Of a DNA stretch of 20,496 nt, positions 797-17,468 are shown piece by piece. Positions within the stretch are counted from its first letter, which is position 1. Each line of letters starts with the position of its first letter. This stretch comes from Elainellales cyanobacterium (GTDB lineage Bacteria > Cyanobacteriota > Cyanobacteriia > Elainellales > Elainellaceae), in assembly GCA_038204505.1 (NCBI GenBank), contig JBBRCV010000084.1, positions 1 to 20,496 on the forward strand. The letters are read 5' to 3'. The translations under genes and the position numbers were made by a program. The notes under the pieces were generated by a model. It was given only the letters and a program-made list of their open reading frames with translations, ran no database searches and was not told where the DNA came from.

Positions 797-2152
797 TTAA
801 ACTTTTGTCTCTTGTTCGTATGCCAATTCTCCCATGATGTAAGTTGCCTCAACAGCCCGATCATCTCCCATGATTATCAGCGTAAATGCCAGCTCTGCTA
901 GCTCATCTAATGACATTGCTGTAGGCTCCGGGTTACGGAATGCCATCAAGGGTGTGGAACGCAAATTTAGCACAATAAAATCAGCTTCTTTACCAGGATC
1001 AAAATTGCCAATAGTATCCTCTAGCGACAGTGCTCTCGCTCCTCCCAACGTTGCTAAAAAGAGTGCTTGGAAGGCAGAAAGCTTTTGCTGTCGCAGTTGT
1101 GCCACTTTGTAAGCTTCGCTTGCCGTTTGCAGCAGCGAAAAGCTAGTTCCTGCTCCTACATCGGTTCCTAAACCAACTTTTACCGGATGTTCTGTTGATT
1201 TGGCTTGCTCAATTTTAAACAAACCGCTGCCCAAGAATAGATTAGAGGTCGGGCAAAAGGCGATCGCTGATTCAGCTTCCGACAGCCGCTTAAGCTCCTC
1301 ATCAGTTAGGTGTATGCCATGGGCAAATACAGAGCGGTTTCGCACTAGCCCAGCTTGATCATAGGCATCCAAGTAGCCGCTAGATTCTGGAAATAGCTCC
1401 TTTACCCACGCCACTTCATTCACATTCTCAGAGATATGCGTGTGTAGATAAACGTCTGGAAATTCATCCAGCAACTTTCCTGCTAAATGCAATTGCTCAT
1501 TTGTAGAAGTGATGGCGAACCGAGGCGTAACAGCATAGAGCAGCCGCCCGTTTTTGTGCCATTTCTGGATGAGGGCTTTGCTGTCCTGATACGAGGTTTC
1601 AGCGGTGTCTCTGAGCGAATCAGGAGCATGACGATCCATCATCACTTTACCTGCAATCATTCTGAGATTACGACGACTCGCCTCTTCAAAAAAAGCGTCA
1701 GTTGATACCGGAAATACCGTAGTAAATACTAGAGCCGTCGTTGTTCCATTTTTCAGCAGCTCATCTAGAAAAAAAGCAGCAACCTTCTGAGCATAAGCTT
1801 TATCGTTGAACTTACCTTCAGTCGGAAAAACATACTGATTTAGCCATTCCAAAAGCTGTTCGCCGTAAGCAGCAATAATTTCAGTTTGAGGAAAATGAAT
1901 GTGAGTATCAATAAATCCCGGCATAATCAGCCGCCCAGCACAGGAGATGATGGGCAACGCCGCATACCGCTCCTTGAGGCGATCGTAAGCTCCTAGCTCC
2001 TTAATCTTTCCGTTTTCCAGAATGAGCAATCCATCAGGAATATAACGAACGCTTTCTGATTCAGAACTGTAAAAGGGGTCATCAACAAAGTCCAGGAAAG
2101 AGCCGCGAAATGCCTTAAGGGAAGGTTCTTGGGATTGAGTAAAGTTTGGCAT
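797..2152 (-). CDS. guaD: guanine deaminase (amidohydrolase superfamily)
   Basis: 451 aa. N-terminal metal-binding block PGFIDTHIHFPQ and the later HTHISEN block are the hallmark His motifs of guanine deaminase/cytosine-deaminase-like amidohydrolases. The start is ATG at 2152. Sits in a cluster with a purine permease. Confidence 0.85.
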   Translation of the reverse strand: MPNFTQSQEPSLKAFRGSFLDFVDDPFYSSESESVRYIPDGLLILENGKIKELGAYDRLKERYAALPIISCAGRLIMPGFIDTHIHFPQTEIIAAYGEQLLEWLNQYVFPTEGKFNDKAYAQKVAAFFLDELLKNGTTTALVFTTVFPVSTDAFFEEASRRNLRMIAGKVMMDRHAPDSLRDTAETSYQDSKALIQKWHKNGRLLYAVTPRFAITSTNEQLHLAGKLLDEFPDVYLHTHISENVNEVAWVKELFPESSGYLDAYDQAGLVRNRSVFAHGIHLTDEELKRLSEAESAIAFCPTSNLFLGSGLFKIEQAKSTEHPVKVGLGTDVGAGTSFSLLQTASEAYKVAQLRQQKLSAFQALFLATLGGARALSLEDTIGNFDPGKEADFIVLNLRSTPLMAFRNPEPTAMSLDELAELAFTLIIMGDDRAVEATYIMGELAYEQETKV

Positions 2153-2223
2153 ATCAAATATATATACGCTACCATCTCTAATTCATTAGCTCTAATTCAC
2201 TAGAGAAATATTTTACTGCTCAG

Positions 2224-3348
2224 CTATCTATCCGGTTCTAACGCTGTGCTCTCAGCAGCAAGAGGCAATGATGCTTCTGAGCTGGCAAGATTTGCATTTG
2301 CTGGTGCGATCGCCCCAGTTCTCTTACTCGCAAACCTCCTGACAATTTCGTCGCGCTGGTTCACCAGATACACGCTAATCAGCGTTAAAACAACGCCGAT
2401 CCATTGCAGTCCAGACAGGGTTTCATCTAAAAGCAGGCTGCTAAACAGCAGGGCAAAAACTGGTGTTAGGAAGATAAGCGCACTGACGCTGGTCATGTTA
2501 CCATTTGCTGCCAAATAGAAAAATATTCCATACGTAATTGCTGTGCCAAACACCGTTGCATAGCCCAATCCAGCCCAGTCGCTGACGTGGAGGTTCACCA
2601 TCTGACTGTCCTCCCACATAAAAGACAGCGCCATCAGCGGCAGCCCACCCAGAATCATGTGCCAGCCCGTTGCTACCAGCGGATCAGCATGTTGCTTCAC
2701 ATAGTGAATAATGATGGTGCCAAAGGACATGGCTAGAGCCGCTAACAGCATTAGTAATTCGCCACTATTGAGCAGGTTTTGAACGTTGAATCCAGAAGCG
2801 ATAATCGGCTGCGAATTTGCCAGACTATCTTTGCTGCTCAGAACAGCCTGAACCGTATAAGGAACAGAAATTCCCAGATTTTGCAGGAGATTAAAGAACC
2901 AATAGCCGGGTAAGCCGCACAAGCAAATGCCTGCTAGCCCAATTCCTAAGCCTAGCCAGCCCCATAGCCCAATGAGTTCACCGAATAGAAACCTTGAGAG
3001 TAATGCCACGACCAAAGGTTGAGCATCAATCAAGATAGCTCCTATTCCTGCTCCTGTATGTACCAATCCCTCGGTGAGAAAGCCTTGAAAGATTGCTCCA
3101 TTGATCAGGGCAAATAAGCCAATCCACAGCCACGCTTGCCAGGTTTTGGGCTGGGGTCGCTTTAGCAGAGCCGCAACACCTAAGATTAAGACTCCTGCTG
3201 GCAAAAGACGAAATGCAGCGAGGAAGAGCGGCGTTGTATTAGGAAGAATGAACTTCATTACAACCATCGCTGTTCCTAAAAAGAAAAAAGGAGCAACTAG
3301 GAAGAGGGGCGATCGCGTAAAATCCGACTTTTCTGTTTGTATTTGCAT
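2224..3348 (-). CDS. EamA/DMT-superfamily transporter (10-TM, duplicated EamA halves)
   Basis: 374 aa, about ten hydrophobic helices in two similar halves. The pattern is typical of drug/metabolite transporter (EamA) proteins. Hydrophilic C-terminal tail. Lies between the permease and guaD on the same strand. Confidence 0.7.
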   Translation of the reverse strand: MQIQTEKSDFTRSPLFLVAPFFFLGTAMVVMKFILPNTTPLFLAAFRLLPAGVLILGVAALLKRPQPKTWQAWLWIGLFALINGAIFQGFLTEGLVHTGAGIGAILIDAQPLVVALLSRFLFGELIGLWGWLGLGIGLAGICLCGLPGYWFFNLLQNLGISVPYTVQAVLSSKDSLANSQPIIASGFNVQNLLNSGELLMLLAALAMSFGTIIIHYVKQHADPLVATGWHMILGGLPLMALSFMWEDSQMVNLHVSDWAGLGYATVFGTAITYGIFFYLAANGNMTSVSALIFLTPVFALLFSSLLLDETLSGLQWIGVVLTLISVYLVNQRDEIVRRFASKRTGAIAPANANLASSEASLPLAAESTALEPDR

Positions 3349-3485
3349 GGGCTGACATCACCGTTTCTGATGAAGGTTTTGATGAGAAGGAACGAACCTA
3401 TCGATCCAGGATTTAGGCAGGAGGTCTACCCCAAGAGATGCTAGGGGCTGCTTTTTTCATCAAGCCTCACCCCGTTGATAAACCA

Positions 3486-4925
3486 TTAACCTTTACTAAA
3501 CCGCAGCGTCATAAAGATGAACCGAGCGACAAAGATGCCTGCAATGATCCAAGTGCCCAGCGATACTTCATGCGCTTTGCCCTGGAACGCTTTGAGGAGC
3601 GGATAGGTAATAAACCCGATTGATAATCCTTCGGCAATGGAGAAGGTTAGAGGAATCATAAAAACTGTCAGGAAGGCTGGAATTGCCACCGCCATATCAT
3701 CCCAATCAATCTCTCTAATCTCCGACAGCATCATCGCTCCCACAATCACTAGCGTTGGTGTGGTGGCAAAAGCTGGGATGCCAGCAAAAAGCGGAATGAA
3801 AAATAGCGCCACCACAAATAAAGTGCCAATGACGATCGCAGTAAAGCCAGTTCGTCCCCCTTCAACGACTCCAGCCACCGATTCTATATAAACAGTGACG
3901 CTGGAAGTCCCCACTAAAGGACCAACGGTTGTGCCAATGGCATCCGCCATTAGCGCTCGGTTTGCACGGGGAAGCTGACCATCGGGACCAATGTAGCCTG
4001 CCCGCATTCCCACACCCGTCAATGTGCCAATAGTGTCAAAAATATCAACGAACAAAAAGACAAGCAGCACCGCGAACCAATCAATAAAGTTTTGACTATT
4101 GAGTTGACTCAGACCGCCGATCGCCTGTCCGAGCAGCGCCTGGGGAACCTCTGGAAATGCAAAGATACCTTTGGGCCAGGGCGTAACGCCTGAGATCCAG
4201 GCTAGGGCGGCAGTTGCAATAATGCCAATCAAGAGCGCTCCTCTAACCCGCCGCACCACTAAACCTGCGGTAATTAGTAGCCCGATCGCTGCCATCAACG
4301 TATTAGGTTCAGCGAAGCTGCCGAAGGCGGTTTTAGTGGCTTCGCTGGCTACAATTAAGCCCGCGCCCCCTTCTTTTACAGAACCCGACAGACCAATGTA
4401 GGCAATAAACAAGCCAATTCCACCTGCGGTCGCATGTTTAATTGAAGAGGGAATCGCTTGGATCAAATGGCGACGAACATCAGTGAACGTTAAAACGATG
4501 AATATTAGACCCTGAACAAACACGCAGGATAATGCCAATCGCCAATCGATCTTGAGTCCAATGACGACAGAAAAGGCAAAGAAAGCGTTGGTTCCCATAC
4601 CGGGCGCTAACCCAAAGGGATAGTTAGCAAAAAAGCCCATACACAAAGTAGCAACTGCCGCTGCGATCGCGGTAGCCACTGCCAGTTGAGAAAATAAATC
4701 GCCAGGTTTTTCCAGAAAAATGGCGTTCGACAAAATGATAGGATTCACCACCAGGACATATCCCATCGTCATAAAGGTGGTAATGCCTGCCAGAATTTCT
4801 GTTTTGAACCCTGTTTTGTAGAAATTAAACTTGAAGTAGTCCGCAATTGCGGCTTGCCAACCGCTGTAGGGTGAACCTTGAGGCGGCTCTGATCGTTCAA
4901 TGCCAGCATCTGTATCTGTATTCAT
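3486..4925 (-). CDS. NCS2-family purine permease, AzgA/PbuG-like (guanine/hypoxanthine/adenine)
   Basis: 479 aa. The N-terminus YFKFNFYKTGFKTEILAGITTFMTMGYVLVVNPIILS is the characteristic opening of AzgA-type xanthine/uracil-permease-family purine transporters. Multi-TM throughout. ATG at 4925 with GGAGA 13 nt upstream on the minus strand. Confidence 0.85.
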   Translation of the reverse strand: MNTDTDAGIERSEPPQGSPYSGWQAAIADYFKFNFYKTGFKTEILAGITTFMTMGYVLVVNPIILSNAIFLEKPGDLFSQLAVATAIAAAVATLCMGFFANYPFGLAPGMGTNAFFAFSVVIGLKIDWRLALSCVFVQGLIFIVLTFTDVRRHLIQAIPSSIKHATAGGIGLFIAYIGLSGSVKEGGAGLIVASEATKTAFGSFAEPNTLMAAIGLLITAGLVVRRVRGALLIGIIATAALAWISGVTPWPKGIFAFPEVPQALLGQAIGGLSQLNSQNFIDWFAVLLVFLFVDIFDTIGTLTGVGMRAGYIGPDGQLPRANRALMADAIGTTVGPLVGTSSVTVYIESVAGVVEGGRTGFTAIVIGTLFVVALFFIPLFAGIPAFATTPTLVIVGAMMLSEIREIDWDDMAVAIPAFLTVFMIPLTFSIAEGLSIGFITYPLLKAFQGKAHEVSLGTWIIAGIFVARFIFMTLRFSKG

Positions 4926-4941
4926 TAAACTAGCTTTCTCC

Positions 4942-4978
4942 TATTTGCTGGTGCATCTCTAGCCTTACCTAGCAAATA
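4942..4978 (-). promoter_or_regulatory. inverted repeat (TATTTGCTgG / CtAGCAAATA, 8-bp perfect core, about 21-nt spacer) in the permease leader immediately 5' of its Shine-Dalgarno
   Basis: Seen directly in the sequence. On the mRNA it would form a stem-loop ending about 4 nt before GGAGA. It could equally be a DNA operator. Confidence 0.25.
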
Positions 4979-5477
4979 CTTTTGCCGATAAAGCGTTACT
5001 TGGCTCAAATAATAGGAAGATTGTGAGACTCTAGCTGTTATTTTGAATACAATATTGCATTGAATTTAAAATCTTAATTGAACCCGCTCAGCTCAGAAAT
5101 TTTAACTACTTTATTTATGTACTTTGAAGATTCATATTGATATCTTTTACCAGCTTTATTTAGAAGCTGTCTATTCATCAATAATAGCCTCTATTGCCCA
5201 CTAATCAAGCTATTTGACTGTGATAAAACTATAAGTTGCTGTGCAATACCCATCAAATCTGCTAATGACAAACTATCAAAATGATGGCTTTTCTACAAAC
5301 GCTTCAAACGCTTCCTAACTTTGCCGTATTGAGGCTTAATTTTGTGATATTAATTGAACAGATGCGATCGCCGTATTTACTCTTCTAAAGTTTTCAACTA
5401 TACAAAACCGCCTCATACAATTTGCTATATATTTGCCAGGTATACTGTAGGTAGTTGAGCTATCTTACACACTGAAT

Positions 5478-10623: not shown

Positions 10624-12336
10624 TTAATTTTTGAGTAAACAATCTGCTTTAAGAACAATTAACTGCGGCGTTTTTAGGACTCGGCACTTCCGAGTTAGTT
10701 TTGACAATGCTGGGATTTTCCCCGCCTCTAACTTCGTTAAAGCTTCTGTAAATGCAGGTTGAAAGCTTCTTAGCCAGCTTTTAGGCTCGGTGGTCAAATA
10801 TTCTGGTCTGAATGTATCGCGGTGTAGTACCCAGAAATCGATGCCATATTTTTGAATAAATTGCTGAGTTTTACCTAAATCCTCGCTGTACTGCGCCTCG
10901 ATTAAATCAATAGTGCGCTGACGAATTTGGTTGTAGTAGCCCAGATGGAAGGGCAGGGCGTACTCTCTGCCGACGAGGAGCGATCGCTTTGCAAACGTTG
11001 GAATATTACTCGCTTCGTCTGCCAAAGTTGCAATCAAACTATCTTTGGGCTGCTGCTGAAAAAACTCGTACAGCGCAGTCTCTCCAGACACGATGTAGCC
11101 TGCTCTGGGAAAATGTCGGAAGAACGCTGGATAGAATACTACTGCGATGGTTAATCCAGCCGTTAACGATAGGATTGCGAATCTTTTGAAAGGGCGATCG
11201 CCCATCTGCTCACAGGCACGCAACGTCATATCTAGCAGGAGAATGAGAGTGATACCAGCGGCAAGGGCGATCGCAATTCTCCAGGTATGTCCGGTGTAGC
11301 GCGTCGGGAAAAAAAGTTTAAGAATAACTGCATGGGCAGCAAAGTACAGACCCAAAGCCACCGCCGCCATCTGAGGCAAAATCTTAATATCTGGACTCAC
11401 CTGCGCTGCCAACGGAAATCGAGTCGGTTTTTTCAGCAGCAGTGGTAACAGAAAACCTGTCCACACCAAAGGCGGCACAAACCGGGGCAGGATGCCGCTA
11501 TTAGAACCAACCAGCCAGAATTTCCAAGGATTAGGATCATAAAACGGATGCCTGCCGCCTGTCCAGAGTTCGGGCATGGTGCGGGCTTGAGCGGCGGTAA
11601 CGGTGGGACCAAATTCGGCAGAGGCAATGATGTAGGGCAGCATGGCGAGGAATCCTAGCCCCGTGATGATGGCAAATGTAATGAGCGATCGCTTCGTAAA
11701 ACTAGGCAGCCAACCTTTCCAATGGGCGAGGCGAACGAAGAGAATGCCCAGGGAAATGAATATGAGGAGCGGATAAAAGAGGGCTTGTAGGATGATAACG
11801 AAGGTGAGCGATCGCCAAGACCCGCGCAGCAAGTAATACAAAAACGCCAGCAGTAGAGGCGTAGCAAACGAGCGAGGAGCTGCCGCCGCCAAATCTTCCC
11901 GCAGCCATAGCCCTTGATTGAGCAACTGCATCGCCACAAACCCAGCCGCCGGAATTGGGAAAAGCTGGAGGCTGACTTTAAATCCATAAAACGTTAGGAG
12001 TAAACCTAGGGCGATCGGCAAAAGTTTACTAAACGTCAGCGGCTCTACTCCCAAATGCGCCATCAGTTGATAGACAGCCGCATATCCCAATGGCGCAATG
12101 GACTTGAAATAATCTGCGATCAAATCATTAGGAAACAATGCCGGATCAACAAACCGCTGCATCCAAAACACATACTCGCGCGCGTCATCCTGCACCACGA
12201 AAGCAGACTGAAAGGCTTGCCGCATTCCCAAAATGGCGTAGTAGGCGGAAAAGATGAGGCTTAAGCCTAACCAAAATCGTTCTAGTGCTTTGGTGCCGGA
12301 AGCGGTGACAAACTGGCGCAAACGGGAGAAGAGCAT
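10624..12336 (-). CDS. polytopic membrane protein, putative GT-C-fold glycosyltransferase (ArnT/PMT-like architecture)
   Basis: 570 aa. About 11-13 hydrophobic helices in the first 420 residues, then a roughly 150-aa soluble C-terminal domain. The first extracytoplasmic loop after TM1 carries an acidic DDAREY motif placed like the DE/DxD motif of GT-C enzymes (ArnT DEARY, PMT DE). ATG at 12336. The stop lies 74 bp upstream of the flotillin ATG, or overlaps it if the TTG start is used. Confidence 0.6.
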   Translation of the reverse strand: MLFSRLRQFVTASGTKALERFWLGLSLIFSAYYAILGMRQAFQSAFVVQDDAREYVFWMQRFVDPALFPNDLIADYFKSIAPLGYAAVYQLMAHLGVEPLTFSKLLPIALGLLLTFYGFKVSLQLFPIPAAGFVAMQLLNQGLWLREDLAAAAPRSFATPLLLAFLYYLLRGSWRSLTFVIILQALFYPLLIFISLGILFVRLAHWKGWLPSFTKRSLITFAIITGLGFLAMLPYIIASAEFGPTVTAAQARTMPELWTGGRHPFYDPNPWKFWLVGSNSGILPRFVPPLVWTGFLLPLLLKKPTRFPLAAQVSPDIKILPQMAAVALGLYFAAHAVILKLFFPTRYTGHTWRIAIALAAGITLILLLDMTLRACEQMGDRPFKRFAILSLTAGLTIAVVFYPAFFRHFPRAGYIVSGETALYEFFQQQPKDSLIATLADEASNIPTFAKRSLLVGREYALPFHLGYYNQIRQRTIDLIEAQYSEDLGKTQQFIQKYGIDFWVLHRDTFRPEYLTTEPKSWLRSFQPAFTEALTKLEAGKIPALSKLTRKCRVLKTPQLIVLKADCLLKN

Positions 12337-12417
12337 GGGCGATCGGAAGAGTGCCTTCTTAGTTTATAGGGTGAGGGATTCATTCAAAGACTGGAGACAG
12401 GAACGACTTCGCCAAGG

Positions 12418-12630
12418 TTAGGAATTATAACGACTGGCTCTTTCTGCGGCTCTGTGTTGGGGTTTTGTGTTGGCGATCGCTGCAATTTTCTCCCAATCTG
12501 CCTGCTCTAAAACCGCATCAAGCACGTCCGAAAGGTTGCAGTTCTGTTCGTAGGCAAGCTGTCTCAACATTTCGTGATGCTCAGGCTGAATATAAACGAC
12601 CTTCCTCTGAGTTTGTGCCATATATGCCAT
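12418..12630 (-). CDS. ribbon-helix-helix (CopG/Arc/MetJ-type) DNA-binding protein, candidate regulator of the adjacent R-M genes
   Basis: About 70 aa from ATG at 12630 (the ORF track extends to a TTG at 12669). RKVVYIQPEHHEMLRQLAYEQNCNLSDVLDAVLEQA is a beta-strand followed by two helices, typical of RHH proteins. No toxin gene lies downstream, so it is not a classical RHH antitoxin. Divergent from the methyltransferase, with a palindromic operator array between them. Confidence 0.6.
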   Translation of the reverse strand: MAYMAQTQRKVVYIQPEHHEMLRQLAYEQNCNLSDVLDAVLEQADWEKIAAIANTKPQHRAAERASRYNS

Positions 12631-12675
12631 ATATACTGTGCCTTTATCTTCCTCGTCATCATAGTTCAAAAATCC

Positions 12676-12716
12676 AATTAGCTATGTTGACAATTAGCTA
12701 ATTAGCTAGTTAAACT
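12676..12716 (+). promoter_or_regulatory. operator/promoter region: three copies of palindromic TTAGCTA(A) (12678-12684, 12694-12701, 12703-12709; the last two form the perfect 14-bp palindrome TAGCTAATTAGCTA at 12695-12708) interleaved with a consensus -35 TTGACA (12687-12692) and -10-like TAAACT (12711-12716) facing the methyltransferase
   Basis: All elements read directly. The operator overlaps the spacer of a TTGACA-18 nt-TAAACT promoter on the plus strand. On the minus strand it overlaps the -35 region of a TATGAT -10 box upstream of the RHH gene. Confidence 0.55.
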
Positions 12717-12860
12717 CTCACTATGTTAAAACGCAAGTACTGTTAGAGTTCGCAGCTTGAGAATTATGGTAAAACCTTATCTCAAGCCTCTAGAGTGAGC
12801 GGCGTTTCTAGAATCAAGTTGCCGCGATGGTTTTCTAATTCATAATTGCTACGTTTTCTT

Positions 12861-13913
12861 ATGAACCAAAGTGTTATTTCCCTATTTTCAGGTTGCGGCG
12901 GACTCGACCTAGGATTCCTGAAGGCGGGTTTTCCTATTACTTGGGCCAATGAGTACGACAAGGATATTTGGGCGACTTATGAAGCCAATCATCTCGACAC
13001 ATTTTTAGACCGCAGAGACATTCGGAAAATTAAGTCAGAAGAAATTCCCGATTGTATTGGTATTATTGGCGGTCCCCCTTGCCAAAGCTGGAGCGAAGCT
13101 GGTTCTCAGCGAGGCATAGAAGATGATCGAGGCAGATTATTTCTAGAATATGTTCGGATTTTAAAAGACAAACAGCCTTGCTTCTTTCTGGCTGAAAATG
13201 TGTCTGGAATGTTGCATGAGAAACATAGGCGAGCTATTCAAAATATTGTTTCGGCGTTTGAAGAAGCGGGTTATACAGTTTCATTTAAACTACTCAATGC
13301 AATGAACCACAATGTTTCCCAGGAAAGGAAACGAGTTATCTTTGTGGGTTACCGTGTCGATCTCAATAAACAGTTTGATTTCAACAGGGTTAATGTATCG
13401 CCTAAAATTCCCACTCTTAAAACCGCCATCTGGGACTTACAGGAGACCGCAATTCCTGCCTTAGCAACTAACAAAACAAATGCCGAAGCCTGTCTCTTCC
13501 CTAACCATGAGTATATGATTGGGGGCTTCTCCAGCATGTATATGTCTCGCAATCGGGTGCGATCGTGGGATGAGCCTTCATTCACGATTCAAGCAGGCGG
13601 CAGACATGCCCCATTGCATCCTCAAGCCAACAAGATGTTATTTGTGGAGAAAGACAAGTTTGCTTTCGATGAGCGATCGCTCTATCCATATCGCAGACTT
13701 TCTGTCCGAGAATGCGCCAGGATTCAAACTTTCCCCGATAATTTTATTTTTCACTATCGAGATCTTAGTGCAGCTTACAAAATGATTGGTAACGCTGTCC
13801 CTGCCAATTTGGGCTTTGCACTGGCTCAGGCAATTTATCAAGATCTATTCTCTAGCTCTGAAGCATCTCCGACCCTTACCCCACAGAAGCAACTGAGTCT
13901 TCAGATTGCGTAG
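12861..13913 (+). CDS. DNA (cytosine-5)-methyltransferase, M.HaeIII-like (predicted GGCC specificity)
   Basis: Conserved C5-MTase motifs: [67 protein letters not shown] and YKMIGNAVP. Block for block it matches my recollection of the M.HaeIII primary sequence ([35 protein letters not shown]). That is recollection, not a database search. The true start is probably ATG at 12861 (MNQSVISLF). The track start at 12846 is TTG. GGCC is about 25-fold depleted in the window. Confidence 0.9.
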
Positions 13914-13929
13914 CCTCCCATCTCAAGCG

Positions 13930-14718
13930 TTACTTTTTCTTTTCAATCATTAAGAAATATACTGTCCTGCGCTCAGACTCAGGAAAATTCTCGCGCCATC
14001 TTCGTTTGGTTTCCTTATGGGGTTTTGGTTGTCCAACAACATCCTTAAAAACCCAAGGCACATTCTCAACCTTGCGCGATATACTCCCTGCCCGAGTATG
14101 TTCAGAGTCACTTTCTTGCCCAACCCATTGCCTTCTAATTGCGACCTCAAGCTTAAATTTATATTGTTCAAAGTATTCATCGAAAGACCAGAGTAAAAGC
14201 TCATCTGCACTGTTGATTTTTTTGGGTGCTTCCAAAATAAATTCTGCGGGATGGGTTGAAGCTCCAAGATTCGGGCTTCCCTTCAGCATGAGAAACTGCA
14301 TCAGCGTCCTAAAATCTGGTTCTGAGAATAGGTTTTTCCAAGGTTGGTTTCTTTTAAGGAGTATCCCTTGATGAAACTTGTTAACTTCTCTATCAATGTT
14401 GGAGATGATCAGTTCAGGGTGAGTTAACCCCAAATCTGTGTACACCTCTAATAGGTTGGCTCTTTGCAAGCGATTAAAGGCAAAACTCCCGCCCGATTGT
14501 TTGATCGAAAGACCTCTACCGTTCAAGTAAATATCAGCTTTCTTACTGGCATGGGAAGTCGAAATCTGGGAGAGATCTTCTACCGAGTGAAGAGAGGTAT
14601 AGCGATCGCATCCCAAAATAGGAGCCGATATCTCCTCAACTAGCCCAATATGGTTCAACCGAACCTTGCCCAGGTTCAAAATTAAAAACTTACAAACCTC
14701 TAGCTCATTCCCTGCCAT
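13930..14718 (-). CDS. putative type II restriction endonuclease, cognate of the HaeIII-like methyltransferase (function inferred from position)
   Basis: 262 aa. ATG at 14718. Convergent with the MTase, with 16 bp between the stops. No transporter, enzyme or HTH motifs recognised. Candidate PD-(D/E)xK-like region KKADIYLNGRGLSIK. Basic C-terminus. Type II endonucleases diverge too fast to identify from sequence alone. Confidence 0.45.
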   Translation of the reverse strand: MAGNELEVCKFLILNLGKVRLNHIGLVEEISAPILGCDRYTSLHSVEDLSQISTSHASKKADIYLNGRGLSIKQSGGSFAFNRLQRANLLEVYTDLGLTHPELIISNIDREVNKFHQGILLKRNQPWKNLFSEPDFRTLMQFLMLKGSPNLGASTHPAEFILEAPKKINSADELLLWSFDEYFEQYKFKLEVAIRRQWVGQESDSEHTRAGSISRKVENVPWVFKDVVGQPKPHKETKRRWRENFPESERRTVYFLMIEKKK

Positions 14719-14891: not shown

Positions 14892-17468
14892 GTGGAGTCC
14901 CGTTACAACCCGGCAGAAATTGAGGAAAAGTGGCAAAAATTTTGGGCAGAGCAAGGGATGGACAAAACTCCTGAAGCAACTGACAAGCCCAAGTTCTATG
15001 CGCTGTCCATGTTTCCCTATCCGTCCGGCAACCTGCATATGGGACACGTGCGGAACTACACCATCACCGACGTGATTGCCCGTACCCATCGAATGCAGGG
15101 CGATCGCGTGTTACACCCGATGGGCTGGGATGCTTTTGGTTTACCTGCTGAAAATGCTGCTATTAAGCAAAATAGCCATCCGGCTCAGTGGACTTATCAA
15201 AACATCGCTCAAATGAAAACTGAGCTGAAGCGGCTGGGTTTGTCCTACGACTGGGATCGGGAGGTTGCGACTTGTTCTCCTGATTACTATCGCTGGACGC
15301 AGTGGATTTTCTTGGAATTCTTCAAATCTGGCTTGGCGTATCAAAAAGAGGCGGCAGTTAATTGGGACCCTGTTGATCAAACTGTGCTGGCAAATGAGCA
15401 GGTGGATAGCGCAGGACGAGCCTGGCGATCGGGCGCATTAGTCGAAAAACGTGTGCTCCGTCAGTGGTTCCTCAAAATCACCGATTACGCTGATCAGTTG
15501 CTCAAAGATTTAGATCAATTGGACGGATGGTCCGATCGCGTCAAGGTGATGCAAGAAAACTGGATTGGCAAATCCACTGGAGCACAGGTCGTCTTTACCA
15601 CCGAGGCAGGCGATGACTTGCCCATTTTCACCACGCGCCCCGATACGCTTTGGGGAGCAACGTTCATGGTGCTGTCGCCTGAGCATCCATTGGTAGAAAA
15701 GTTAACCACTCCTGAACAGTCTGCCGCTATCCAAACTTACAAAACTGCAACAGCAGCAGAAACCGATATTGAACGCACGGCTGAGAACCGCGAAAAAACT
15801 GGCGTTTGGACGGGCAGTTACGCCATCAATCCCGTCAACAGCGAAAGGATTCCGATCTGGATTGCTGACTACGTGTTGATGGGCTACGGGACTGGAGCGA
15901 TCATGGCGGTTCCTGCCCACGACCAGCGCGACTTTGAGTTTGCTCGGAAGTTCAATTTGCCTATTAAAGCAGTTGTGCAACCTACTGACCAAGCGTTATA
16001 CGGCGCAACGATGACCGAAGCCTATCCCGGCGATGGGGTGATGGTTAATTCTGGGGCATTGGATGGCGTGGCGGCGGGTAAAGCAGCGGGGCAGAGCGTT
16101 GAGGTGGCGATCGCCTGGTTAGAGTCACAAGGCAAAGGCAAGGGCACTTCAACCTATCGGTTGCGAGACTGGCTGATTTCTCGGCAGCGCTATTGGGGTG
16201 TACCAATTCCAGTGGTGCATTGTCCGAACTGCGGCATTGTGGCAGTTCCCGAAGCAGAGTTGCCCGTTGTTTTACCAGAAGCGGTAGAGTTCTCTGGAAA
16301 AGGCGCTTCTCCCTTGGCGCAGTTAGATTGGGTCAATGTGCCTTGCCCTACCTGCGGCACTCCGGCAAAGCGCGAAACCGACACGATGGATACCTTTATT
16401 GACTCGTCCTGGTATTTCTTGCGCTACCCCGATGCTAAGAACGAGCAGCAGTTGGGCAATCCGGCAATAGTGAACGATTGGATGCCAGTTGATCAATATG
16501 TGGGTGGCATTGAACACGCGATTTTGCACTTACTGTATTCGCGGTTCGTTACTAAGTTTTTGCGCGATCGCGGTTTCCTCAATTTCGATGAGCCTTTCAA
16601 ACGTCTGCTCACGCAAGGTATGGTTCAGGGCTGGACTTACATGAATCCCAACAAAAGTGGCAATGCCCAATGGATTCCTTCTGCGCTAGTCGATTCTAAA
16701 GATCCGAAAGACCCCGAAACTGGGGAGCCATTGGTTGGGTCTTTCAAAACCATGTCTAAATCTAAATACAACGGCGTTTCACCCGATGAAGTGATTAACA
16801 AATACGGCGCAGATACCGCCCGGATGTTTATCCTATTCAAAGCGCCTCCTGAGAAGGATCTGGAATGGGATGAAGCTGATGTAGAAGGGCAGTCTCGGTT
16901 TCTTAACCGGGTTTGGCGGTTGGTAGCAGAGTTTTCTGAACGAGGGACAACGGCAGAGAAGGCGATCGCAACTCTCTCAAAACCAGAAAAAGAATTGCGT
17001 TACGCCATCCACAACGCCATTCAGCAAATCACTGAAGATTTGGCAGACGACTATCAGCTCAACACCGCCGTTTCAGAATTGATGAAACTCAGCAACGCCT
17101 TGACTGATGCACCTTGCAAAGACTCCCCCATCTACACTGAAGGCATCCAAACCTTACTCAAACTCCTTGCCCCTTTTGCCCCTCACATGGCAGAAGAACT
17201 TTGGCACGGTCTAGGATACGCTGATTCAGTTCATCATCAACCCTGGTGCATCTTCGATCCCACTGCATTAGTAGTGGATGAAATCTCGCTGGTTATCCAA
17301 GTTATGGGCAAAACACGCGGAACTATCCAAGTGCCCTCCCAAGCTGACAAACAGGCGTTAGAACAATATGCCCGCGATTCTGAACTTGCCCAGCGCCACA
17401 TTGCTGACAAGGAGATTAAAAAAGTGATTGTCGTACCTGGAAAACTGGTGAACTTTGTGCTTGGATGA
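14892..17468 (+). CDS. leuS: leucyl-tRNA synthetase
   Basis: 858 aa. HIGH-class motif HMGHVRNY. The editing domain and the KMSKS variant TMSKS ([11 protein letters not shown]) are present. The N-terminus [15 protein letters not shown] is typical of cyanobacterial LeuS. GTG start at 14892 with GAGGAG 9 nt upstream. Confidence 0.95.

Follow-up and report, generated by a model that had tools for sequence, protein, structure and literature searches.

A probable ribbon-helix-helix repressor and a conserved palindromic array at the methyltransferase promoter of a cyanobacterial restriction-modification locus

Introduction

Transcriptional control dedicated to restriction-modification (R-M) systems has been described as the work of helix-turn-helix (HTH) C proteins, HTH-methyltransferase fusions, promoter methylation or antisense RNA. 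A locus in an Elainellales cyanobacterium (GenBank assembly GCA_038204505.1, contig JBBRCV010000084.1, positions 1 to 20,496; this whole stretch of 20,496 nucleotides is hereafter called the window) raises the question of whether a protein of an unrelated fold may be used for the same purpose. The locus comprises a gene for a small, probable ribbon-helix-helix (RHH) protein, a C5 cytosine DNA methyltransferase gene, a gene for a 262-aa candidate endonuclease and, between the first two genes, a control region with an array of TAGCTA boxes. From the sequence evidence presented below, we consider it likely that a dedicated RHH repressor controls the methyltransferase promoter of a Type II R-M system that is probably specific for GGCC, and that the RHH protein most likely takes the role played by HTH C proteins elsewhere.

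A Type II R-M locus with a small regulator gene

An initial annotation made from the sequence alone had proposed an R-M locus, and the genes found here identify it as a system of Type II. The methyltransferase aligned with M.HaeIII over its full length (residues 4-326; PDB 1dct, E = 3e-125) and matched Pfam DNA_methylase (4.5e-94), TIGR00675 (6e-77) and PADLOC MTase_II (1e-104). Sequence and profile searches with the 262-aa protein gave no match in Pfam, NCBIfam, PADLOC or the PDB; in a fold search, its model was found to fold like HinP1I, MspI and HhaI. Over 300 members of its family were found, distributed across several phyla, and in one Bacteroidetes and one Ignavibacteria contig its homologue is encoded in an operon consisting of an HTH_3 gene (67-68 aa), the endonuclease gene and a C5 methyltransferase gene. 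Because of this fold, and because its homologues lie in C-R-M operons, we accept the 262-aa protein as a restriction enzyme. In the orthologous cassettes that carry the HTH_3 gene (L060-L062), that gene stands upstream of the endonuclease gene in the classical C-R-M layout. The same endonuclease family is thus accompanied by an HTH gene in two other phyla and by the RHH gene here, in agreement with the earlier suggestion that an RHH protein occupies the place of the usual HTH C protein.

The TAGCTA array and the promoters of the control region

Three TAGCTA boxes were located in the control region, two of them (12695-12700 and 12703-12708) in tandem. The hexamer occurs four times in the 20.5-kb window against 3.9 expected, so that its total number is at the level of chance, but three of the four copies lie within 30 bp and their clustering is not. 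The best promoter-like match in the segment 12350-14950, TTGACA-18-TAAACT (10/12), points at the methyltransferase gene, and its -35/-10 spacer is filled by the two tandem boxes. On the other side of the array, the putative -10 of the RHH gene, TATGAT, lies 36 nt before the RHH ATG, with the third box 15 nt upstream of it (Table 1). The palindromic array and the two promoters had been recognized in the initial annotation, and we found all of them, with the boxes placed as described, after minor corrections of coordinates. Methylation of the promoter as a means of control was considered and rejected, since the boxes contain AGCT and neither GGCC nor GGNCC; it is also disfavoured by the finding that the boxes remain constant beside methyltransferases of different specificity families.

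Table 1. Positions in the window of the genes and control elements of the R-M locus
Feature	Position	Strand	Evidence or remark
67-aa probable RHH regulator gene	12418..12621	-	diverges from methyltransferase gene
C5 cytosine DNA methyltransferase gene, M.HaeIII-like	12861..13913	+	Pfam, NCBIfam and PDB matches
262-aa Type II restriction endonuclease candidate	13930..14718	-	convergent with methyltransferase gene
Putative -10, TATGAT, of the promoter of the RHH gene itself	12658..12663	-	read from sequence
TAGCTA box on the RHH-promoter side, slot 3 of the 8-bp register	12679..12684		sequence
Consensus -35 (TTGACA) of methyltransferase promoter, centre of box array	12687..12692	+	promoter scan
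Two tandem TAGCTA boxes forming a perfect 14-bp palindrome, TAGCTAATTAGCTA	12695..12708		sequence
-10 (TAAACT) of methyltransferase promoter, 18 nt from the -35	12711..12716	+	promoter scan
Methyltransferase leader, about 144 nt	12717..12860	+	8-bp inverted repeat 12755-12762 / 12780-12787
456-bp block of RHH gene, operator and methyltransferase leader	12397..12852		replaced in L065

Conservation of the linkage between RHH gene, array and methyltransferase gene

The RHH family comprises 120 clusters with 58-93% identity and, among the sequences found, is confined to cyanobacteria. A genome scan yielded 59 loci (60 counting the window) from Leptolyngbyaceae, Pseudanabaena, Chroococcidiopsis, Nostocales, Coleofasciculus, Halothece and others, and in about 51 of the 60 a divergent C5 methyltransferase gene lies no more than a few hundred bp from the start of the RHH gene. 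These methyltransferases represent at least four lineages, namely HaeIII-like enzymes (65-86% identity), an Eco47II type (about 34%), a type of 396 aa (about 27%) and at least one further type in L044. The convergent nuclease genes fall into at least five families, among them the 262-aa family (six loci), Pfam RE_HaeIII (three), Pfam RE_Eco47II (seven) and two without annotation, c5 (about 288 aa; 14 loci) and c3 (220 aa; nine loci). Two loci (L028 and L036; 1021-2726) instead have a GmrSD-type Type IV nuclease gene after the HaeIII-like methyltransferase gene and on the same strand.

The array itself is far less variable than the enzymes beside it. Read in the orientation of the RHH gene, the operator has the form box, box, ATTGTCAA, (box), box, followed by a -10; the boxes start at 0, 8, 24 and often 32, in a strict 8-bp register with TTGTCAA in the middle slot, and the ATG is situated about 55 nt past the core. 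In the loci other than the window, the -10 is a TAnnnT hexamer, mostly TATACT, that follows just past the last box and precedes the RHH ATG by 35-45 nt. Read in the orientation of the methyltransferase gene, the consensus is TTGACA-ATTGGCTAATTAGCTnn-TTTAAT, with a spacer of 17. Tandem boxes in register are present in 55 of the 60 loci, covering several cyanobacterial orders, and a search of 450 kb of loci with the tandem-box pattern gave 71 matches, 70 of which lie within 200 nt upstream of an RHH start codon; the array is therefore not a product of chance. No match of this pattern was found at the endonuclease promoters in the same 450 kb. The variants at position 15 in the strand of the RHH protein (Q, L or K) showed no clear correlation with the box variants (TAGCTA or TAGCCA).

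When metagenomes were searched with the 21-nt operator alone, 17 of the 19 matches were accompanied by an RHH gene at a distance of 55-110 bp; in 16 of these 17, a C5 methyltransferase gene was present on the other side. The two remaining matches (L077, 3912-3932, 33 bp before an ArsR-like HTH gene; L087, 209-229, before sufC) are in AT-rich, apparently non-cyanobacterial contigs with no RHH or methyltransferase gene nearby, and may represent chance occurrences or sites for another regulator. A phage origin was rejected, as the operator 21-mer gave no match in viral contigs.

Two observations support TTGACA/TTTAAT as the methyltransferase promoter. First, in six cassettes of the 396-aa type the methyltransferase ATG is exactly 6 nt past TTTAAT, which fits a leaderless transcript. 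Second, TTGACA appears to decay where the methyltransferase has been lost, the exact hexamer being retained in 46 of the 51 loci with an intact divergent methyltransferase gene and in only two of the nine without (Fisher, 6e-5, relatedness ignored). A strict search for the -10 located TAnnnT 16-19 nt past TTGACA in only about 12 loci, and the -10 assignment outside the window is thus tentative.

The small protein as a probable RHH protein

The open reading frame of the small protein was listed as 12418-12669 on the minus strand. The start with MAQTQRK at 12621, which gives a protein of 67 aa, is common to all 35 aligned homologues and was adopted here. A perfect 9-bp tandem duplication, TGCCATATA x2 (12616-12633), extends across this start codon and creates a second in-frame ATG at 12630 (MAYMAQ...) that is absent from every homologue. 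Residues T7-Q-R-K10, Y13, P16, H18-H19, C31 and S34-D-V-L-D38 are invariant in the alignment, as is the putative strand TQRKPVY.

An RHH domain is built of one strand and two helices in about 45 residues, and RHH proteins are obligate dimers that place a two-stranded sheet in the major groove at sites that are repeated or palindromic. Several lines of evidence, each of them weak, point to such a fold. The NCBIfam family ORF56, which consists of RHH plasmid copy-control proteins, matched the window's protein with E = 8e-5 and 22.6 bits, below the cut-off of 50, and matched all 35 members of the family at E <= 0.01. ORF56 was also the best match in the PDB (2k9i / 3ft7; E = 0.05 by sequence and 0.03 by profile), with 41% identity over 32 aligned residues that span the putative strand VYI and helices A-B. 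Pfam RHH_7 and Antitox_RHH each matched only one of the 35 family members (E = 0.15), and no HTH family in Pfam or NCBIfam matched the protein. The AF2 monomer (pLDDT 73), in which the N-terminal residues 1-15 are extended and helices occupy 16-29, 33-43 and 46-69, has a topology compatible with RHH proteins, the last helix being an additional basic one, and the Foldseek list was rich in RHH proteins, with ORF56, CopG, AmrZ, NikA, AvtR, CdbA and RHH antitoxins at its head; these structural matches all had E > 0.5 and are non-significant, and the model lacks the strand. As the evidence is concordant, although no single score is significant, we regard the small protein as a probable RHH protein.

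Proposed mechanism

In the mechanism that we propose, RHH dimers would bind the 6-bp palindromic TAGCTA boxes, which are spaced 8 bp centre to centre, two of them between the -35 and the -10 of the methyltransferase promoter and one (two in many relatives) just upstream of the -10 of the RHH gene. In a naive cell, which contains no RHH protein, the strong methyltransferase promoter would fire; as the RHH protein builds up, the array would become cooperatively occupied, whereby the methyltransferase would be brought down to a maintenance level and the RHH protein would limit its own synthesis. Repression of the methyltransferase gene is predicted because two boxes within a spacer of 17-18 nt, under a consensus -35, would leave RNA polymerase no room, and autorepression because boxes three and four directly adjoin the RHH gene's -10. 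It is probably the RHH protein, and not the methyltransferase, that reads the boxes, because protein and operator are constant while the enzymes vary.

The endonuclease gene may be affected indirectly. Lower transcription of the methyltransferase gene would relieve the endonuclease gene of interference by convergent transcription or antisense RNA, and restriction would consequently be delayed. We infer this step, the least supported one, from the convergent orientation of the endonuclease gene, its near-zero distance from the methyltransferase gene and the lack of an operator of its own. The gap between the two genes is 16 bp in the window and from -29 to 30 bp in most loci, with convergent orientation across five nuclease families, and no terminator-like site was found between the convergent genes, whereas the orthologous cassettes governed by HTH C proteins are co-directional.

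Several observations weigh against this interpretation. The loci in which the RHH gene and the TAGCTA array are tied to a C5 methyltransferase promoter (about 70, genomes and metagenomes together) are phylogenetically related, so that the counts overstate their independence. The RHH assignment draws on sub-threshold scores, both for ORF56 and in Foldseek, and the AF2 monomer shows no strand, as would be expected for a model without the dimer partner. In most loci the methyltransferase -10 is non-canonical, TTTAAT being without the conserved A at position 2. In the window, a second promoter-like site in the leader, TTGCCG-16-CATAAT (12819-12846), could bypass the control. Finally, the module is dispensable, since R-M genes without RHH gene and operator are present in L065 and in Hyella (see below), and the RHH protein follows the host lineage rather than the type of cassette and persists at empty sites, so that its primary role may be a different one.

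Modularity of the RHH/operator block and alternative interpretations

The RHH gene with its operator, on the one hand, and the R-M genes, on the other, also occur apart from each other. In L065, a metagenome relative with a methyltransferase 90% identical at the protein level and the same membrane-protein gene next to it, 89 unrelated bp replace the 456-bp block (Table 1). Hyella has the pair of 262-aa enzyme and methyltransferase without RHH gene or boxes; in L066, the membrane-protein gene is kept and neither R-M nor RHH genes are present. Conversely, orphan RHH genes with their boxes kept were found in L040 and L045. Thus, all three genes of the unit recognized in the initial annotation are present in the window, but the unit is not an obligate one. 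Other variants were a locus that has lost both methyltransferase gene and boxes (L009) and one in which RHH and methyltransferase genes are co-directional (L012). At least two metagenome-assembled genomes contain two RHH-linked cassettes each (L002 and L058; L044 and L054).

The exchange of cassettes is best seen in Pseudanabaena, in which the RHH gene, the operator and the downstream genes are constant and the interval from scpB to the operator holds one or two differing R-M cassettes. Some RHH proteins next to different cassettes are identical, and the identity of the RHH proteins is 88-89% whether the types of the neighbouring methyltransferases match or differ. Between strains, homology resumes at box 1 or 8 bp before it, and in L047, an empty site, operator and RHH gene are kept and the scpB flank ends just 8 bp from the operator. 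In 13 Pseudanabaena loci (L020-L037 and others; about 4001-5314), the RHH gene is 4 bp upstream of a gene for a 365-aa RlaP-like nucleotidyltransferase (PF10127), a spacing that suggests an operon, in which the RHH protein may co-regulate a gene outside R-M.

We suggest tentatively, as a possibility short of an even chance, that RHH gene and operator form a shared portable platform, in which cassettes are swapped behind a fixed operator and -35, with the junction at box 1/-10, and one type of regulator governs several R-M systems per genome. If so, a resident RHH protein would repress in advance the methyltransferase gene of an incoming cassette of the RHH type, and such systems would be incompatible or exclude one another. 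C proteins act in the opposite way, by activating the endonuclease gene too early.

A related but unlikely interpretation is that RHH gene and operator are a resident regulator and dock inherited with the host, beside which cassettes insert; the RHH protein would autoregulate and might control its downstream gene, and control of the methyltransferase would be incidental rather than an establishment circuit. The independence of RHH identity from cassette type in Pseudanabaena, the empty site, the cassette boundary exactly at box 1, the orphan RHH genes with boxes and the RHH-nucleotidyltransferase pairs are all in its favour. However, the -35 of the methyltransferase promoter is inside the array, so that any cassette inserted there would unavoidably come under the operator; the arrangement of RHH gene, operator and methyltransferase gene is found again in different orders, at chromosomal sites with unrelated surroundings; and in the window's own lineage the relative that is devoid of R-M genes (L066) is also devoid of the RHH gene. 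This interpretation overlaps with the methyltransferase-repressor interpretation and does not exclude it.

It is quite improbable that the RHH protein is an activator, which would bind in the promoter spacers, remodel them in a MerR-like manner and thereby activate either the methyltransferase gene or the RHH gene. Towards the RHH gene, TTGTCA is about 20 nt from the -10 with boxes in between, resembling the over-long spacer of MerR-type promoters, and classical C proteins do activate at low concentration. The methyltransferase promoter, however, already has a consensus -35 and a spacer of 17-18 nt and needs no activator, and to our knowledge activation by twisting of the spacer has not been described for RHH proteins.

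Very improbable, too, is that the array is read by another factor, either a host regulator or the methyltransferase, with the small open reading frame being unrelated or its product not binding DNA. The sub-threshold evidence for the fold and the two matches of the same 21-mer in front of other genes (ArsR-like and sufC) in unrelated metagenome contigs would be compatible with such a reader; against it, no gene other than the small open reading frame constantly accompanies the array, the boxes remain the same where the methyltransferase families differ, boxes without GGCC or GGNCC are not targets of these methyltransferases, and the loss of array conservation that would be expected wherever the open reading frame is lost has already been seen in L009. 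That the small gene encodes a stray antitoxin of the RHH type, or is left over from plasmid partition or copy control, with no link to R-M can hardly be maintained, because, although its nearest sequence relative, ORF56, is a plasmid copy-control protein, its neighbours in the window are the divergent methyltransferase gene and the gene for the 570-aa membrane protein, no toxin, ParA or replication gene is adjacent to it in the window or the 59 genome loci (the absence of a toxin partner having been noted in the initial annotation), and its association with C5 methyltransferase genes is far too consistent.

Comparison with known regulators

The C proteins, for example, C.PvuII, C.AhdI, C.Esp1396I and C.Kpn2I, resemble the RHH protein in being small, dedicated and autoregulated (the last probable for the RHH protein) and in being encoded in Type II R-M loci, where they have repeated palindromic operator sites overlapping promoters. 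In both cases, the regulator is present in only some of the homologous R-M systems, and identical operators could allow cross-talk. Some C proteins (those of Esp1396I, Kpn2I and EcoRV) also repress the methyltransferase promoter, according to a 2025 review of R-M biology. In contrast to C proteins, the RHH protein has a probable RHH fold and no Xre-type HTH match; its gene diverges from the methyltransferase gene, whereas a C gene is upstream of the endonuclease gene and co-transcribed with it; in place of a C-box, its locus has phased 8-bp boxes, and the endonuclease gene is without an operator; and its predicted main action is repression of the methyltransferase gene, not activation of the endonuclease gene. 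The RHH gene therefore shares with the C-protein family neither the fold nor the gene position nor the type of operator.

The methyltransferases M.SsoII, M.Ecl18kI, M.MspI and M.EcoRII, which have an N-terminal HTH repressor domain, exert negative feedback on the methyltransferase promoter, as the RHH protein would do. Such systems have been described (PMC2760811) as having the operator in a divergent intergenic region and as involving competition between promoters. In contrast to these fusions, the predicted repressor of the window is a protein in its own right, 67 aa long and probably of another fold, and the divergent partner of the methyltransferase gene is the regulator gene and not the endonuclease gene.

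Among RHH proteins, MetJ reads operators of similar design. With at least two short palindromic boxes at an 8-bp period over a promoter, the TAGCTA array has the same period and symmetry as the MetJ sites. MetJ, omega, CopG and Arc are RHH repressors that occupy short repeated sites next to each other, a single dimer on each; MetJ binds to tandem 8-bp palindromic met boxes, the omega protein of pSM19035 reads arrays of 7-bp repeats, and the sites of omega and CopG overlap the promoters of their own operons. The protein studied here differs from MetJ, Arc and omega in having no significant sequence similarity to them, a different box sequence and, as its target, an R-M methyltransferase gene, and from MetJ, omega, CopG and Arc in the extra basic C-terminal helix (residues 46-69) of its model. 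Its nearest relative by both sequence and structure, ORF56 of the Sulfolobus plasmid pRN1, is itself an autoregulatory RHH protein; it differs in serving the copy control of an archaeal plasmid outside any R-M context, and the match to it is below the family cut-off.

We found no RHH-type controller of an R-M system in the literature searched (RHH, CopG or MetJ in combination with R-M, and the operator sequence), and the 2025 review makes no mention of RHH regulators. Two potential precedents were examined: a CopG gene beside TaqIII was rejected, being a plasmid partition gene, and the RHH domains of DndE were set aside as a different case. If the proposed control is correct, a second, unrelated controller fold has been wired to the methyltransferase gene, suggesting convergent evolution of R-M control circuits, and an alternative design exists in which a timer based on methyltransferase repression is coupled to convergent transcription. 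Such control would help to explain the turnover of R-M cassettes in cyanobacterial genomes, and a 67-aa repressor with an operator of about 40 bp would be a usable genetic part in cyanobacteria. The three unannotated families of candidate endonucleases flagged here matter for the transformability of cyanobacterial strains.

GGCC specificity, flanking genes and other cassettes

The R-M system of the window is probably specific for GGCC, judging from the full-length likeness of its methyltransferase to M.HaeIII and from its relatives: in L004, L005 and L059, methyltransferases with 65-68% identity have partner enzymes of the Pfam RE_HaeIII family. The window contains three GGCC sites against 76 expected. 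We rejected this depletion as proof of an active R-M system, since GGCC is depleted about 10- to 25-fold (observed/expected 0.04-0.2) in every cyanobacterial locus examined, regardless of the cassette, and regard it only as background in keeping with such a system. In the Pseudanabaena loci, CCGG and several 6-bp palindromes are depleted as well.

The conserved cyanobacterial gene for the 570-aa membrane protein (10624-12336, minus strand) is 81 bp downstream of the RHH gene, and leuS (14892-17468, plus strand) forms the other flank of the three-gene block. HIP1 octamers number 29 in the window against 0.35 expected, indicating that the DNA is cyanobacterial, and one of them is inside each of the three genes; the G+C content of the block (41-45%) is below that of the flanks (48-54%). 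The methyltransferase leader is unusually long compared with the 0-70 nt of most relatives, and its inverted repeat is partly conserved in L001; a search of Rfam gave no match to a structured RNA anywhere in the window, control region and leader included.

Other cassettes of the survey extend the range of enzymes and regulators. The c5 proteins (for example, L022, 145-1011), which pair with HaeIII-like methyltransferases, and the c3 proteins (for example, L025, 2-661), which pair with the 396-aa methyltransferase, have no match in Pfam or PADLOC and are candidate restriction endonucleases. L015 and L017 (about 1784-3906) encode 700-aa methyltransferase fusions paired with Eco47II-type endonucleases, and L013 has a 30-aa RHH remnant (1807-1896) beside a second methyltransferase gene. 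The 262-aa family, for which Pfam, NCBIfam and PADLOC have no model and the PDB no relative by sequence, was found in three regulatory formats, with an RHH protein, with an HTH C protein and with neither. In a non-cyanobacterial contig (L063 / L064, 4001-6548), a homologue of the 262-aa protein gene converges on a methyltransferase-Vsr operon that is adjacent to a DndB-like gene and preceded by an unannotated 97-aa gene, which may encode another kind of small regulator.

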